Assembly: GCF_044324785.1 (NCBI RefSeq)
Contig: NZ_CP172127.1
From: Escherichia coli
GTDB taxonomy: Bacteria; Pseudomonadota; Gammaproteobacteria; Enterobacterales; Enterobacteriaceae
Length of the DNA: 64,000 bases
Strand: one strand, 5' to 3'
The number at the start of each line of letters is the position of its first letter. The stretch's first letter is position 1. A program made the position numbers and the translations under genes. Positions 647 to 52,791 of the stretch are shown piece by piece. Below the pieces are notes generated by a model. The model was not told the DNA's origin, did not search any database, and saw only the letters and a program-made list of their open reading frames with translations.

Positions 647-5453
<4,807 letters not shown>

Positions 5454-11960: not shown

Positions 11961-12803
11961 ATGATGCAGCCAGTGATTAACGCGCCGGAAATTGCCACTG
12001 CCCGAGAACAGCAGTTGTTTAATGGCAAAAACTTCCATGTGTTTATCTATAACAAAACTGAGAGTATCAGCGGACTGCATCAGCACGACTATTATGAATT
12101 TACTCTGGTATTAACCGGGCGTTATTTCCAGGAGATTAACGGTAAGCGCGTGTTACTGGAACGGGGCGATTTTGTTTTTATTCCGTTAGGTTCGCACCAT
12201 CAAAGTTTTTATGAGTTTGGTGCCACGCGTATATTGAACGTTGGGATCAGTAAACGCTTTTTTGAGCAGCATTACCTGCCGTTGTTGCCTTATTGCTTTG
12301 TCGCTTCGCAGGTATACCGGACCAATAACGCTTTTCTCACCTATGTGGAAACAGTGATTTCTTCATTGAATTTCCGCGAAACAGGGCTGGAAGAGTTTGT
12401 TGAGATGGTTACTTTTTATGTCATTAACCGTTTACGTCATTACCGCGAAGAACAGGTGATTGATGATGTACCGCAGTGGCTGAAAAGTACGGTAGAAAAG
12501 ATGCATGATAAAGAGCAGTTTAGTGAATCGGCGCTGGAGAATATGGTGACGTTGTCAGCCAAATCACAGGAATATTTGACGCGAGCGACTCAACGATATT
12601 ATGGCAAAACGCCAATGCAGATTATTAATGAAATCCGTATTAATTTTGCCAAAAAACAACTGGAAATGACCAACTATTCAGTGACGGATATTGCGTTTGA
12701 GGCCGGTTATAGTAGCCCGAGTTTGTTTATTAAAACGTTTAAGAAATTAACGTCCTTTACGCCTAAGAGCTATCGTAAGAAATTGACTGAATTTAATCAG
12801 TAA
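11961..12803 (+). CDS. chbR: AraC-family dual regulator ChbR
   Basis: ORF 11961..12803, 280 aa; C-terminal AraC-type helix-turn-helix. Confidence 0.95.
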
Positions 12804-12906
12804 GTCGTTATACCTGACAATTCACATATCTGTCCTGTTGCTGGATTATTTATGTCCGGGGGGCAGATATGCCAGATATCAGTATTCTGTACTGAAGGGA
12901 GAAATT

Positions 12907-15067: not shown

Positions 15068-17329
15068 TTACGCCGGGATTTTGTCAATCTTAGGAATGCG
15101 TGACCACACGCGGTGTGCTGCCATCAGCGTTAACAGTTCATCCATAAAACTACCATCGGCGCTGTCAGCTTCCACAATCCCTTCTTCACCCTGGTCAGCG
15201 ACCTTGATTGTTGCTTTAAACTTGCGCGCGTCTCCTGCCAGCGCAATCGGTTTAAGGTGTTTGTAGGCTTCCATCAGGTAGTAGTTGGCATCGCCGTTGT
15301 CAGCGATATCCGCGATATTGCCGCAAGGGACAATAACCGCATCGACCGTCAGCGAAGGCGCTCCGGCAAAGGTAGCAGCTATAGGCAGCACCGTACCGTC
15401 ATCCGCAGTCACTTCACCCATTCGGGAGTAGAGCAGTTTGGCATGAACGCCTTTGGCCTTCAGCGCCTTGAGAATGGTCAGAAGGTCTGCCGATCTCACT
15501 TCATCATTAAGCAAAATCGCTACCACGCGACCTTTCACATCACCGTCAGGAATGGCGTACAAACTTAAGGATGGATCCTTTTTCAGACCGTTGACGTCCG
15601 GAGGCGGGGAGATATTCAGCTGGTCGTCAGTCAGTTCGATACCGAGATTTTTCGCCACCGCCTGGGCCAGAGTGAGATCAATATGCGCCAGCTGGTCAAC
15701 AACGCGCTCACGAATATACGGCCGAACTACTTTGCTTAACTCAAAACTGAAACCATCGACAATATGGCGCTGCTCGAATGGCGTCTGACTTAGCCAGAAC
15801 AGACGCGGATGGGAATAATATTCGCCAAACGATGGACTGCGCTCGCGAACTTTATTGCCTTCCACGCGTTCCTGGTATGATTCAAAACCGCCACGTTTCG
15901 GCCCCGGCGGTGTTTCGCGCGGCCAGTTATCGTTGATCGAGTTCGGTTCGTAATTCGCCGGGTTAGTGTCGATCCCCATACGATGCATGCCGTCACGCTG
16001 GAAATTATGGTAAGGGCAGGTCGGGCGGTTAATCGGAATCTCATGGAAATTTGGTCCGCCAAGACGACTGATTTGTGTATCGGTATAGGAGAACAAACGT
16101 CCCTGCAACAGGGGATCGTTGGTGAAGTCCAGACCAGGAACAATATGACCTGGATGGAATGCTGCTTGTTCGTTTTCGGCAAAGAAGTTATCCGGATTGC
16201 GATTGAGCACCATTTTGCCGACACGCTGAACGGGCACCAGTTCTTCCGGGATAAGTTTAGTTGGATCAAGAAGGTCGAAGTCGAACTTAAATTCATCTTC
16301 CTCAGGAATCAACTGGAAGCCCAGTTCGTATTCCGGAAAATCGCCTGCTTCTATCGCTTCCCACAACTCGCGGCGGTGGAAGTCCGGGTCACGTCCGGTT
16401 AGTTTTTGTGCTTCATCCCAAACGAGTGAGGCTTTACCTGCCAGTGGTTTCCAGTGGAAACGTACGAACGTTGCCTTCCCTTCGGCATTAATCAGGCGGA
16501 AGGTGTGAATACCGAAGCCTTCCATGGTGCGGTAACTGCGCGGGATCCCGCGATCCGACATCGCCCACATCACGTTGTGCAGAGTTTCAGGTTGCAGAGA
16601 AACATAATCCCAGAAAGTATCGTGGGCGCTTTGCCCTTGTGGAATTGCCCAGTGTGGTTCTGGTTTTACCGCATGCACAAAATCGGGGAATTTATGCGCA
16701 TCCTGGATAAAGAAGATTGGCGTGTTATTGCCAACGAGGTCAAAAATACCCTCTTCAGTATAGAACTTGGTGGCAAAGCCACGGATATCACGCACGGTAT
16801 CGGCAGAGCCAGCACCACCCTGAACGGTAGAGAAACGTACAAATACTGGGGTGATTTTATTCGGATCTGAGAGGAAATCCGCTTTGGTGATATCGCTTAA
16901 GCTTTTATATGGCTGGAAATAACCGTGAGCGGCTGATCCGCGTGCATGAACAATACGTTCCGGGATGCGCTCATGGTCAAAGTGAGTGATTTTCTCGCGC
17001 AGAATAAAATCTTCCAGCAGCGTTGGACCACGGCTACCGGCACGCAGTGAGTTTTGATCATCGGCGATGCGCACGCCCTGATTAGTGGTCAGCGCAAAAT
17101 TTTCACTGCCTTTGCGTACGTCTTCCAGAGAATTAAGTTTTTCGTTACGCGTATCAGGGGCTTTCAGGCTCCCAGGGGCGGTAGGTTGTGCACCTGGCGG
17201 TGTTGGTTCAGCCGCTGGACGATGAGATCCGTCCTCAGGTGCCAGTGAGTCCATCCCCGGTTTCGCTTCGTTGGAATCGTGTAGTGGTGACTGGTGCTGA
17301 TGTGGGTTCTTTTCGTTATGTTGCGACAT
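15068..17329 (-). CDS. katE: catalase HPII
   Basis: ORF 15068..17329, 753 aa, [38 protein letters not shown]... and catalase core. Confidence 0.97.
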
Positions 17330-17511: not shown

Positions 17512-17775
17512 ATGCGTTTAGTGAAGCCAGTAATGAAGAAACCGCTCCGTCAGCAAAACCGCCAGATTATTAGCTATATCCCACGCACGGAACCCGCGCC
17601 GCCAGAACATGCGATAAAGATGGATTCGTTTCGTGATGTCTGGATGCTGCGTGGCAAATATGTTGCGTTTGTACTGATGGGAGAGTCATTTCTGCGCTCA
17701 CCGGCGTTTACTGTGCCTGAATCCGCCCAGCGTTGGGCAAATCAGATCCGCCAGGAAGGGGAAGTGACTGAGTAA
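17512..17775 (+). CDS. cedA: cell division activator CedA
   Basis: ORF 17512..17775 (87 aa); the protein may instead start at the in-frame ATG 17533 (MKKPLRQQNRQ..., 80 aa); start uncertain. Confidence 0.85.
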   Translation: MRLVKPVMKKPLRQQNRQIISYIPRTEPAPPEHAIKMDSFRDVWMLRGKYVAFVLMGESFLRSPAFTVPESAQRWANQIRQEGEVTE

Positions 17776-18062
17776 GGCTTAGGTACCTCCCGGTTTGGCC
17801 GGGAGTTACATGACCTGAAATTCTGTATTTCGTTGCTACATTCATTCAATCCACCTGTAACAAAAAGCTGCCTTTGACGATCTATTGCTATAAATAAGTG
17901 ATCTTTTTTCTTTGATTGTTTATTTATTTTATAATAGTTAAGTTTAGCTAATCATAATGAGCTATTTTTGATAGTTCATCCTGTGGCGTTGTCATTAAAC
18001 TTATATTGTAAATTGCTTAGATTCAAATGAGATAATAATTTTGTTGAAATATGAGGTGGGAG

Positions 18063-18866
18063 ATGTTTTCTACAAACTTAATACAGAGTAATTATGGTAA
18101 TTTAAATATTAAAAACCTTGCCTTCGACTCTTTTAAAGAAAGACTGCAGTCTACCATGACAGCACTCACTTTCTTTATATCAACGGGTCAATGTGCCTGC
18201 GATGAAATAGCAGAATCAAACTTCAATTATATGATTGCCTATATGTCTAACATTAACTATGATGCCTCAAAGCCAGGAGCGCCAGCACTTAGTTTTGATA
18301 CGTATCTGCAGGACAATGTTAAATATAGAGTGATAATTAATAATCTTTATGGTAGTGAAATTAGAATAAGAGGTATTAATGAGAATTTTGTTGGGATGGA
18401 TTTTACCTGTGAATTCCGACCAGAAAAAATGACCAATTTGATCAATATAAAAAACAGGTTGGTTATTCACTATTTAAGAACGATATACTATGAACAAAAT
18501 TATATACATCCTGTTGGGAGCATTTTTGCTGCGATTCAAAAAAATGAGAGTCTCCTAAAGTTTCCTTCGGTAATATCAATGCTTAATGTCAATCTTCTTT
18601 TTAATCCACTGAATCTTCCGGGAATGGGAAGTGGTGTGCTTGAAGAGATTATGAGTATTTCAGATAGTTCACTTAGAAAACGTCTTGGGTATGAGGTTTT
18701 AAGCTTTTCGCTACAGGCACATTCATTGAGCCAGGAATGTATTGATAAGTTGGACATTTTTTTCGCTGACGATCTGTTTAAATATGAGTCAGTATGCATC
18801 GCCGCGATGGAACATTTAAAAAGTAAGGCAACGGCCCCTATACAAAACGAACCGTTGCCAGCATAA
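18063..18866 (+). CDS. ydjO: uncharacterised protein YdjO (no recognisable domain)
   Basis: ORF 18051..18866; start preferred at ATG 18063 (MFSTNLIQSNYGNLN...), which has a GGTGGGAG Shine-Dalgarno 5-8 nt upstream; strongly AT-rich ORF and upstream region. Confidence 0.85.
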   Translation: MFSTNLIQSNYGNLNIKNLAFDSFKERLQSTMTALTFFISTGQCACDEIAESNFNYMIAYMSNINYDASKPGAPALSFDTYLQDNVKYRVIINNLYGSEIRIRGINENFVGMDFTCEFRPEKMTNLINIKNRLVIHYLRTIYYEQNYIHPVGSIFAAIQKNESLLKFPSVISMLNVNLLFNPLNLPGMGSGVLEEIMSISDSSLRKRLGYEVLSFSLQAHSLSQECIDKLDIFFADDLFKYESVCIAAMEHLKSKATAPIQNEPLPA

Positions 18867-42909: not shown

Positions 42910-43736
42910 ATTCGGCGGCTAAGGCCCATGATATCGAGGATCTTGGTGGCAATCTCTTCTACCGAATAATTGGTACTGTTAATCCACGGGATCTGATTTT
43001 TACGGTACAACGCTTCCACTTCCGCGACTTCCATCCTGCACTGACGAAGCGAGGCATAGCGACTGTTCTCCCGACGTTCCTCGCGAATCGCCGCCAGACG
43101 TTCCGGGTCGATAGTCAGGCCGAACAATTTATGCTGAAGCGGTTTGAGCGACGCGGGTAGCACAAGATTATCCATATCGTCGGCAATAAAGGGGTAGTTT
43201 GCCGCGCGGATACCAAACTGCATTGCCAGATACAGACTGGTGGGGGTTTTACCACAGCGAGAAACACCGAGCAGGATCACCTGAGCCTGGTCCAGATTGC
43301 GCAACGAAATGCCGTCATCGTGGGCGAGGGTGTAATCAATCGCCGCAATGCGCGCATCATATTTATTGAGATTATTAGGGTTAAGGCCGTGGGTTCGGTG
43401 AGCAATCGGCGTTGGATCCAGTTTCATCTCTTGTTGTAGCGGGGCAACCAGCGCCTGAACGATATCCTGGCAAAACCCTTCACTTTGCAAGATGATGGCG
43501 CGAATCTCCGGCAATACGATGGAGTAGAAGACCAGCGGGCGCACACCTGTCTGGTGATAAATTGCGTCAATCTGATCCTTCACTGCCCGTGCACGGCTCT
43601 CATTTTCGACAAACGGCAGCGTAATGCTGCTGATAGTGACGGGAAATTGTGACATTACTGCGTGTCCTAATACCTCCGCAGTTATTGCCGTACCATCAGA
43701 AATATAAAAAACGTGGCGATCAACAGCATTATCCAT
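42903..43736 (-). CDS. ppsR: PEP synthase regulatory protein PpsR (bifunctional kinase/pyrophosphorylase, DUF299)
   Basis: ORF 42903..43736, 277 aa; P-loop GVSRCGKT. Confidence 0.95.
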
Positions 43737-43966
43737 TTTGTTCTTCCCGTGATGCAGACATAATTCTATGAAAGCATAAATTAAAAACGCACAGAAGCGT
43801 AGAATGTTATGTCTGGTTTATAAAATGAACCTTCAATTTTATTATTTATGAAAACAGCATTTCATTTTTATGGTTTCGTTTATACCGATGGTTTATGTGG
43901 AAATTGTCGAATAAAGCAGGTTTGCGCAACGCTGGGATCAGTCTTAAAAAGTAAAAAAATATATTT

Positions 43967-51879: not shown

Positions 51880-52791
51880 ATGTATCAACGCTGTTTTGAT
51901 AATGCCAGTGAAACGCTGTTTGTCGCCGGTAAAACGCCACGGCTTTCACGTTTTGCATTTAGCGATGATCCAAAATGGGAGTCCGGACATCACGTTCATG
52001 ACAATGAAACCGAGTTGATTTACGTCAAGAAAGGGGTAGCAAGGTTTACCATCGATTCTTCGTTATATGTCGCGCACGCCGATGACATTGTGGTGATAGA
52101 ACGTGGCAGGCTGCATGCGGTGGCCTCTGACGTTAACGATCCAGCAACGACGTGTACCTGTGCGCTGTACGGCTTTCAGTTTCAGGGGACTGAGGAAAAT
52201 CAGCTACTGCAACCGCATTCTTGCCCGGTAATTGCCGCAGGGCAGGGAAAAGAAGTCATTAAAACCTTATTTAATGAGCTAAGTGTGATTTTGCCGCAAA
52301 GTAAAAATAGCCAAACATCTTCGTTATGGGACGCATTTGCCTATACGTTAGCAATTCTTTACTATGAAAACTTTAAAAATGCTTATCGTTCGGAGCAGGG
52401 GTATATTAAAAAAGATGTTCTGATAAAAGATATTCTTTTCTATCTGAATAATAATTATCGCGAAAAAATCACTTTAGAGCAGTTATCGAAAAAATTTCGT
52501 GCCAGCGTCAGTTATATTTGCCATGAATTTACCAAAGAGTATCGTATTTCCCCTATTAACTATGTTATTCAACGGCGTATGACGGAAGCGAAATGGTCAC
52601 TCACCAATACTGAATTATCACAGGCAGAGATCTCCTGGCGTGTGGGTTATGAAAATGTCGATCACTTTGCCAAACTGTTTTTGCGCCATGTCGGCTGTTC
52701 GCCCAGCGATTACCGCAGGCAATTTAAAAACTGTTTTGCGGAACAAGAAATCTTATCTGAATTTCCTCAACCGGTAAGTCTTGCCGGATAA
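51880..52791 (+). CDS. ydiP: AraC-family transcriptional regulator YdiP
   Basis: ORF 51880..52791, 303 aa; cupin-like N-terminus and AraC HTH C-terminus. Confidence 0.93.
   Translation: MYQRCFDNASETLFVAGKTPRLSRFAFSDDPKWESGHHVHDNETELIYVKKGVARFTIDSSLYVAHADDIVVIERGRLHAVASDVNDPATTCTCALYGFQFQGTEENQLLQPHSCPVIAAGQGKEVIKTLFNELSVILPQSKNSQTSSLWDAFAYTLAILYYENFKNAYRSEQGYIKKDVLIKDILFYLNNNYREKITLEQLSKKFRASVSYICHEFTKEYRISPINYVIQRRMTEAKWSLTNTELSQAEISWRVGYENVDHFAKLFLRHVGCSPSDYRRQFKNCFAEQEILSEFPQPVSLAG

Follow-up and report, generated by a model that had tools for sequence, protein, structure and literature searches.

Positions 17776-18866 of the 64,000-nucleotide stretch of Escherichia coli DNA analysed here (the window; contig NZ_CP172127.1) form an AT-rich islet between cedA and tcyP, in which ydjO is the sole open reading frame (ORF) backed by annotation or homology. 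At a probability of roughly 85%, the islet is a single real gene within alien DNA that replaced the terminator between cedA and tcyP, is bound by H-NS, and is dispensable. Based on the ORF list and RefSeq names, katE was placed at 15068-17329 on the minus strand, cedA at 17512-17775 on the plus strand as an intact ORF of 87 codons, and tcyP at 18870-20261 on the minus strand. The ORF between cedA and tcyP has its longest frame at 18051-18866 on the plus strand (271 codons). All four gene names follow RefSeq, both for near-identical genomes and for K-12, where the gene order is the same and ydjO is b1730 (804 bp). While CedA was confirmed by NCBIfam, the tcyP name rests on the RefSeq annotation because NCBIfam has no TcyP model, and the ORF matches related transporters only below their cut-off. 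A megablast search with the locus found a match in 5424 of 5426 complete E. coli genomes.

Loci that lack the islet reveal what it replaced. A scan anchored on CedA, with one genome per species, yielded 54 loci, and tblastn was run on each. In 50 of these, cedA and tcyP are directly adjacent, with both flanks readable and no ydjO-like match in between. They comprise 46 loci from outside Escherichia, in genera including Citrobacter, Salmonella, Enterobacter, Kluyvera, Leclercia, and Atlantibacter, together with E. whittamii and the species-level representatives Escherichia E69, SCPM-O-B-8794, and E1V33. No trace of ydjO was detected by tblastn in any of the 48 non-Escherichia loci. The empty cedA-tcyP spacers are mostly ∼50-110 bp long, with four longer ones of up to ∼0.9 kb, and all 11 that were inspected contain a bidirectional terminator built from an A-tract, a GC hairpin, and a U-tract. 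ydjO DNA is present in 4298 of the 5426 complete E. coli genomes at 93.4%-100% identity to the window allele. The other 1128 have no match, and 1124 of these retain an intact empty site (examples are T309.Ta3, Ecol_867, the type strain ATCC 11775, A0 34/86, and APEC IMT5155). ATCC 11775, A0 34/86, and IMT5155 belong to phylogroup B2, and the genomes lacking ydjO are presumably largely from this phylogroup. An earlier note on this DNA, made from the letters alone, had named conservation across the Enterobacteriaceae as a pattern that would speak against acquisition; instead, the gene is missing from the other sampled genera and from about a fifth of E. coli.

Alignment of empty and filled alleles places the left edge of the islet inside cedA, right after CAGGAA at 17757, and the right edge at the ydjO stop codon, which is separated by 3 nt from that of tcyP. 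The ∼1.1 kb of the islet takes the place of ∼65 ancestral bp, consisting of the last five cedA codons and the terminator. The resulting cedA tail, QEGEV(T/A)E, is common to all islet-bearing lineages, namely E. coli, Escherichia sp. MOD1-EC7003, and E. albertii. These observations suggest that in an ancestor within the genus Escherichia the islet DNA replaced the ∼65 bp that carried the shared cedA/tcyP terminator. The features at the two edges are as follows.

17758-17775, plus strand: 3′ end of cedA in its islet form (codons 83-87 and the stop codon), reading GEVTE-stop where empty alleles read NEVEE-stop.

17783-17809, plus strand: inverted repeat forming a hairpin after the cedA stop codon (GTACCTCCCGG TTTGG CCGGGAGTTAC), with no U-tract.

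18814-18859, minus strand: candidate intrinsic terminator of tcyP, with a stem-loop at 18827-18859 and a U-rich tail at 18814-18826.

The cedA-side hairpin, with a predicted RNA folding energy of -21.2 kcal/mol (z = -2.9), occupies the place of the former terminator, and a different hairpin is found at the same place after cedA in E. albertii. A search of the spacer against Rfam gave no family match. The candidate tcyP terminator lies within the final ∼17 codons of ydjO; its stem-loop has a predicted folding energy of -19.6 kcal/mol (z = -3.1), and UUACUUUUUAAAU comes after it. Following the loss of the old terminator, cedA would now be followed by the 17783-17809 hairpin, and tcyP is most likely terminated on the minus strand by the hairpin and U-tract inside the end of ydjO. 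The latter assignment fits two further observations: this segment is retained in the remnant left by a natural deletion in MOD1-EC7003, and the last 10 residues of YdjO, which are encoded inside the putative terminator, are disordered in the structure model. Both ydjN (tcyP) and ydjO are down-regulated along with the CysB regulon in serum (PMC4145685), which would fit antisense read-through from tcyP. The locus offers a clean natural case in which an insertion destroys a shared bidirectional terminator, with one replacement bordering the new gene and another within it.

The empty sites also bear on the polarity of the change. Had ydjO been a core gene of the enterobacterial ancestor that was deleted in all other lineages and became AT-rich secondarily, empty sites would be deletion products, and deletions of ydjO do occur, between 12-nt repeats in MOD1-EC7003 and via the insertion sequence IS1 in E. 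coli ES4. However, the outgroup genera and the empty E. coli sites share a homologous, intact bidirectional terminator and an ancestral-type cedA tail (QENE...). Deletion of the islet cannot recreate this terminator and tail, which therefore contradicts an ancestral ydjO. In addition, the real deletion derivative, MOD1-EC7003, looks different in that both islet ends are kept, and the 48 non-Escherichia loci are without any ydjO trace. We consider this alternative highly improbable, and insertion remains the preferred reading.

The inserted DNA is set apart from its surroundings by composition. The GC content of 17776-18866 is 34.5% (32.8% in the cedA-ydjO spacer and 35.1% in ydjO) as compared to 49.4% for the whole window and 51.5%, 51.6%, and 53.2% for cedA, katE, and tcyP, respectively. 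The fall in GC starts at ∼17790-17850 and stops at the ydjO stop codon, and the lowest 60-bp windows (17-18% GC) lie within 17880-17970. In a sliding-window analysis, as the earlier note had proposed, the islet was found to be the lowest-GC 1091-bp stretch of the 64 kb, with the minimum (34.3%) at 17761 and fewer than 0.1% of windows lower. GC at third codon positions (GC3) in ydjO, 0.335, is the lowest among the 42 window ORFs of at least 200 aa (mean 0.53, standard deviation 0.07). Composition and codon usage like those of the flanking genes, which the earlier note would have held against acquisition, are thus not seen; both GC and GC3 differ sharply. Its description of ydjO and the region upstream as AT-rich is borne out, and the two A/T tracts it quoted were both found (TTGTTTATTTATTTTA at 17916-17931 and TAATAGTTAAGTTTAGC at 17932-17948). 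The length of 270 bp it gave for the upstream region was wrong, as the spacer measures 287 bp.

No integrase, transposase, target duplication, or terminal or end-flanking repeat was found at the islet, and no tRNA gene lies within 12 kb of it. The repeats detected within the islet are short, internal, and at chance level. By integrase, tRNA, and repeat criteria, the islet is not a classical genomic island or mobile element, and its composition and its absence from empty sites indicate an insertion of compositionally alien DNA. A search of phage genomes gave no match. A plasmid origin was considered and rejected, as the only matches in the plasmid collection were mislabelled chromosomes of 4.8-4.9 Mb.

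Within this DNA, ydjO is a real protein-coding gene, with the following start.

18063-18866, plus strand: ydjO (b1730), 267 aa, from the RefSeq and K-12 start.

18053-18058, plus strand: Shine-Dalgarno sequence GAGGTG, 4 nt upstream of ATG 18063, as read from the sequence.

The ATG at 18051 that opens the longest frame has no Shine-Dalgarno sequence. The choice of ATG 18063 over the longest frame, also made in the earlier note, is supported by the GAGGTG upstream and coincides with the RefSeq and K-12 start; once the gene is transcribed, translation would start there. At the local composition, the probability of a stop per codon is 0.074, giving a probability of ∼1e-9 for 267 open codons; when the region was shuffled 5000 times, the longest run without a stop was 197 codons, and 267 was never reached. 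YdjO from the window, a predicted soluble, acidic protein (30.3 kDa, isoelectric point 5.4, no predicted membrane segment), is 94% identical to K-12 YdjO. The ratio of nonsynonymous to synonymous substitution rates (dN/dS, Nei-Gojobori) for ydjO is 0.16 when the window is compared with K-12 and 0.22-0.27 when it is compared with the divergent P0005 allele described below, while katE, tcyP, and ydjM have values of 0.02-0.03. The dN of ydjO is ∼8 times that of these three genes at similar dS. Where intact, ydjO is thus under purifying selection that is far weaker than that on its neighbours.

The gene also has a long history within the genus. At the same junction in E. albertii lies an islet of 32% GC. 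The cedA tail there is QEGEVAE, and an open frame in the islet encodes a product that shares 40% identity with YdjO across the 114 residues available before the contig ends. In the AlphaFold Protein Structure Database (AFDB), a 257-aa E. albertii protein is 33% identical to YdjO. Between E. coli and E. albertii, dS is ∼1.8 and dN 0.54 for ydjO, as compared to 0.62 and 0.04 for cedA, and CedA is 91% identical. The P0005 allele, which is rare in E. coli (29 cluster members; GCA_025283635.1; locus L007, 4000-4500), is a mosaic: across window positions 18000-18560, the 5′ two-thirds of the gene, it shares only 75-79% identity with the window (dS ∼0.9), as against 95-100% on both sides. This pattern implies recombination with an unsampled, deeply diverged ydjO lineage. 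Because of the E. albertii divergence and the mosaic P0005 allele, the YdjO family is regarded as old and diverse within the genus. As a side observation, the E. albertii type-strain contig stops inside the ydjO-like gene, and a search with the YdjO fragment it encodes found only one 79-aa fragment. At the E. albertii NBRC 107761 locus (L012), no katE match was found upstream of cedA within the 4 kb of sequence available, unlike at the five other Escherichia loci recovered; either a differing local gene order or an assembly break would account for this.

Outside Escherichia, YdjO is without genuine homologues among 1.84 billion representative proteins. Searches of Pfam, NCBIfam, PADLOC, PHROGs, and the sequences of the Protein Data Bank (PDB) gave no significant match, in agreement with the earlier note, whose author had recognised no motif; the best Pfam match had an independent E-value of 0.12, and the only NCBIfam match scored 14.8 bits against a cut-off of 450. 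A search of 5.8 billion protein clusters returned Escherichia proteins only. Exhaustive phmmer against the 1.84 billion representatives returned Escherichia fragments and one 26%-identical protein, P0034. Although its E-value (3e-35) would suggest a distant homologue, P0034 was ruled out because it derives from a contig with A and G exchanged throughout. Its source (Logan SRR33321306 contig 56313; locus L009) is 2 kb of the E. coli cedA-ydjO-tcyP locus, with A changed to G 569 times and G to A 434 times. Artefacts of this kind can pose as remote homologues of orphan genes.

The restriction of YdjO to one genus raises the question of whether the ORF was born in place. In that case the inserted DNA would have been non-coding, or coding for something else, and the frame would have arisen and lengthened inside the genus, perhaps by reading across the tcyP terminator as far as the following stop codon, leaving YdjO a very young protein of marginal function. 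The lack of a homologue outside the genus, the frequent loss of the gene, and the last ∼13 codons, which amount to the terminator hairpin read as protein and are disordered in the model, are all what this would predict, as is the very fast divergence from E. albertii (33-40% identity as compared to 91% for CedA, with dN of 0.54 versus 0.04). However, E. coli and E. albertii both have an open frame and the two can be aligned, and therefore a coding gene of about this length predates the divergence of the copies. The dN/dS of ydjO is also well below 1 in every comparison, and 1.1 kb could not derive from an ancestral spacer of 50-110 bp. Birth in place is therefore unlikely, and the arrival of the gene with the alien DNA is preferred.

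Published K-12 data bear on two features of the region between cedA and ydjO.

17776-18062, plus strand: cedA-ydjO spacer, 287 bp, counterpart of a K-12 'promoter island'.

18012-18039, plus strand: counterpart of the K-12 ydjO sigma-70 promoter, with -35 ATTGCT (ATGACT in K-12) and -10 AATAAT.

Using genomic SELEX (systematic evolution of ligands by exponential enrichment), a constitutive sigma-70 promoter for ydjO, ATGACT-16-AATAAT, was reported in K-12, with the spacer marked HNS (PMC3946193). This promoter lies at 3158-3185 (minus strand) of the K-12 locus L004, and its match in the window has two mismatches, both in the -35 element. A SELEX peak for the RpoS holoenzyme has also been reported in ydjO (PMC5493296). 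The K-12 ydjO/cedA spacer is listed among 78 promoter islands in Table 1 of PMC3661553, where it is recorded as H-NS-bound in the chromatin immunoprecipitation (ChIP) data sets of Kahramanoglou and Oshima and as adjoining a gene predicted to be foreign by both Nakamura and Lawrence. The H-NS association of the spacer is thus already known from the literature; a literature search on b1730 together with H-NS returned nothing relevant. By analogy with these published ChIP data, the AT-rich spacer and gene body of the window would be bound by H-NS, and, given also the SELEX results, the promoter at 18012-18039 would be largely silent in ordinary growth. Published data thus support the binding on which H-NS silencing of the islet, as suggested in the earlier note, would depend.

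Several results weigh against the reading of the islet as a silenced, horizontally acquired gene. In scans for the H-NS high-affinity motif, using TCGATAAATT as the consensus, the islet was not enriched, with two sites at no more than two mismatches, approximately the window average. A simple sigma-70 consensus scan showed no excess of promoter-like sites, with three as compared to 4.2 ± 2.2 in composition-matched shuffles, a scan distinct from PlatProm, the method that defines the promoter-island class. Searches of phage, plasmid, PHROGs, and remote-homology collections found no donor or mobile-element signature, and horizontal transfer is for this reason deduced from composition and insertion only. 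The earlier note's description of horizontally acquired DNA embedded in the core genome therefore stands as to the alien composition and the insertion between core genes, with no donor found to complete it. AlphaFold models of YdjO are poor, with a predicted local distance difference test score (pLDDT) of 67.6 for the best and ∼45 for the other four, and comparison of the YdjO model with the AFDB model of a near-identical protein gave a template modelling (TM) score of 0.33, meaning that the two disagree; such weak models lend no functional support. Finally, the distribution is patchy, with E. albertii and most E. coli filled and several Escherichia lineages and part of E. coli empty, the latter including known B2 strains. 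A single insertion followed by simple vertical descent fails to explain this patchiness. Either the filled/empty polymorphism is older than the species splits, or it was moved by homologous recombination through the flanks. The empty-site spacer of E. coli differs at several positions from that of every sampled islet-free Escherichia lineage.

Within the genomes that carry it, ydjO is frequently broken, and the sites involved are as follows.

18538-18544, plus strand: A7 run, a recurrent frameshift site, with one A gained in VCSW8, 13TMH22, UTAK-22, and E110019 and two in PK13.

18757-18763, plus strand: T7 run, at which loss of one T causes the frameshift that inactivates ydjO in O157:H7.

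18523-18527, plus strand: T5 run, at which one T is lost in a ydjO pseudogene.

17875-17886 and 18767-18778, plus strand: 12-nt direct repeat TGACGATCT(A/G)TT (repeat family D7).

Among 59 evenly sampled full-length ydjO matches, 13 differ from 804 bp, and all six of these off-length copies that were fetched are annotated as pseudogenes. Frameshift or nonsense lesions, the nonsense change being CGA to TGA at codon 119, are carried by O157:H7, E143, VCSW8, 13TMH22, PK13, UTAK-22, and E110019. At the protein level, cluster P0013 (2273 members) ends in ...IQKK at the A7 run and P0012 (149 members) ends in ...IQKMRVS, as a -1 slip at the same run would give; truncated YdjO clusters together hold ∼2,400 members as compared to 8291 at full length. 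Larger losses are also seen. In MOD1-EC7003, ∼900 bp between the 12-nt repeats were deleted (locus L010, 4300-4460), removing the promoter and 235 codons and leaving the last 32 ydjO codons and both islet ends. In E. coli ES4 (locus L003), two copies of IS1 flank a rearrangement in which part of the chb operon, katE, cedA, and most of ydjO were lost, and only the last ∼67 bp of ydjO remain beside tcyP. Insertion sequences have also been reported in ydjO (PMC10044804, PMC3486847). Taken together, ydjO is dispensable and repeatedly inactivated: a fifth of E. coli genomes lack it and keep the ancestral empty site, and it has been disabled more than once elsewhere. Public genomes show the empty allele that is ancestral, others that are deeply diverged, one that is mosaic, and inactivation by several independent routes, which makes ydjO a well-bounded case for the persistence of a taxonomically restricted gene under weak selection.

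Some side observations concern the surroundings of the islet. Other stretches of the window below 40% GC in 500-bp windows lie at 5251-5400, 12351-12900, 43501-43850, and 52151-52400. The nearest relative of the window, E. coli N3, is 99.9% identical, and its cedA is annotated as frameshifted, with a length of 263 bp (locus L005, 3113-3375). In katE, identity dips to 88% against K-12 in one 100-bp bin and to 89-91% against the P0005-bearing locus L007 in three bins, with neighbouring bins at 96-99%; the dips, located at window positions 16100-16199 and 16500-16799, suggest possible recombination patches in this gene.

The distribution of ydjO has a practical consequence. YdjO has been described as a 'conserved signature protein' of E. 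coli/Shigella and used as a quantitative PCR (qPCR) target for water monitoring, where, among three markers, it was detected least often (93%) and correlated least well with culture counts (r = 0.65; PMC11057252). The published amplicon corresponds to window positions 18706-18803, with one mismatch to the forward primer TTCTCGCTACAGGCACATTC in this sequence (TTTTCG...), and its region is absent from ∼21% of complete E. coli genomes, type strain included. YdjO is therefore not present in all members of the species, given the 1128 of 5426 genomes without a match, and its carriers include frameshifted copies. Since ydjO is missing from ∼21% of genomes, the assay should give systematic false negatives, which would fit the low detection rate and weak correlation reported. 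Phylogroup B2 is the lineage of major extraintestinal pathogens. Outside E. coli, YdjO is represented by the 33-40% identical homologue at the same locus in E. albertii and by the MOD1-EC7003 remnant, with nothing found outside the genus, and the published primers should stay specific given how far the E. albertii DNA has diverged.

Some of the known systems closest to the ydjO islet are AT-rich single genes linked to type III secretion systems (T3SS). YdjO could be a 'fossil' T3SS substrate, a third of the icaR/icaT kind, acquired with E. coli T3SS 2 (ETT2) or a pINV-like element; the gene would then have been decaying since its cognate T3SS degenerated, and its deep allelic divergence, seen in the mosaic allele with dS ∼0.9 and in the 33-40% identity to E. 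albertii, would record a past arms race, not neglect. A scan with the MxiE box consensus GTATCGTTTTTTTANAG found no match within three mismatches upstream of ydjO, and the sole match in the window, at 24501, is at chance level. In O157:H7, whose locus of enterocyte effacement (LEE) system is active, ydjO is also a pseudogene through a frameshift. The first 19 residues of YdjO are modelled as disordered, rich in S, N, I, and Q, and free of acidic residues, which would be suggestive of a secretion signal, but this composition is what any AT-rich gene encodes. In the literature that mentions ydjO, no link to secretion was found. In its favour, an AT-rich espL1 islet lies 8 kb away in the window, its gene surviving only in degenerate form in the same B2 type strain that has no ydjO, and the distribution and islet profile of ydjO resemble those of icaR and icaT (PMC9241512). 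On balance we regard a secreted origin as distinctly unlikely, and an orphan gene brought in by alien DNA remains the preferred reading.

The genes icaR (yjgL) and icaT (yfdF) are single-gene chromosomal islets of E. coli and Shigella, of ∼35% GC, that encode type III secretion substrates. They occur in phylogroups A, B1, D, and E but in little of B2; E. albertii has icaR whereas E. marmotae lacks it, and both genes, whose proteins have no clear family, were called possible 'fossil genes' (PMC9241512). Shared with ydjO are the GC content of ∼35%, the position of a single orphan gene between core genes, an orthologue in E. albertii (for icaR), and spacers that are promoter islands. In the same way as the two ica genes, which are rare in B2, ydjO occurs widely in E. 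coli but is missing from the known B2 strains that were checked. The two ica genes differ in having a functional MxiE box and demonstrated T3SS-dependent secretion, whereas ydjO has no MxiE-box match, and protein similarity between IcaR or IcaT and YdjO has been neither detected nor reported. The espL1 islet of the window (26193-28091, minus strand; 39% GC, GC3 0.36; arpB in K-12) likewise consists of an AT-rich single gene between core genes. The gene varies from one E. coli genome to another: 4329 of 5424 genomes cover at least 80% of the espL1 query, and the B2 type strain holds a frameshifted remnant. Its 632-aa product is annotated by RefSeq as the type III secretion effector EspL1 and, in contrast to YdjO, which is in no named family, belongs to ShET2/EspL.

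A second comparison is with other y-genes restricted to E. coli/Shigella. YahL and YjfZ (264-271 aa; PMC11057252) are similar in size to YdjO, and low GC is shared by yahL (38.8%), yjfZ (42.4%), and yhiS (33.9%). Like YdjO, the products of these three genes are of function not established and confined to E. coli/Shigella; they differ from it in having no detectable sequence similarity and are thus not paralogues at the BLASTP/phmmer level, where the idea of YdjO paralogy with YahL, YjfZ, and YhiS was tried and dropped. Foldseek gave a weak YhiS match to YdjO (TM ∼0.3) on a low-confidence model.

More generally, AT-rich, H-NS-bound orphan islets in gaps of the core genome are a textbook class, and the ydjO islet is already known, as a known gene of a known class. 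In the promoter-island catalogue of Panyukov and Ozoline 2013 (PMC3661553), entry 1811053_320, ydjO(-)/cedA(-), is the same object, and the empty columns A and B for this entry indicate that neither IslandViewer nor GIST flags it as a genomic island. The catalogue covers the K-12 spacer only; the edges of the insertion, the terminator it replaced, the lack of the gene in a fifth of E. coli genomes, and its decay, all described here, lie beyond it.

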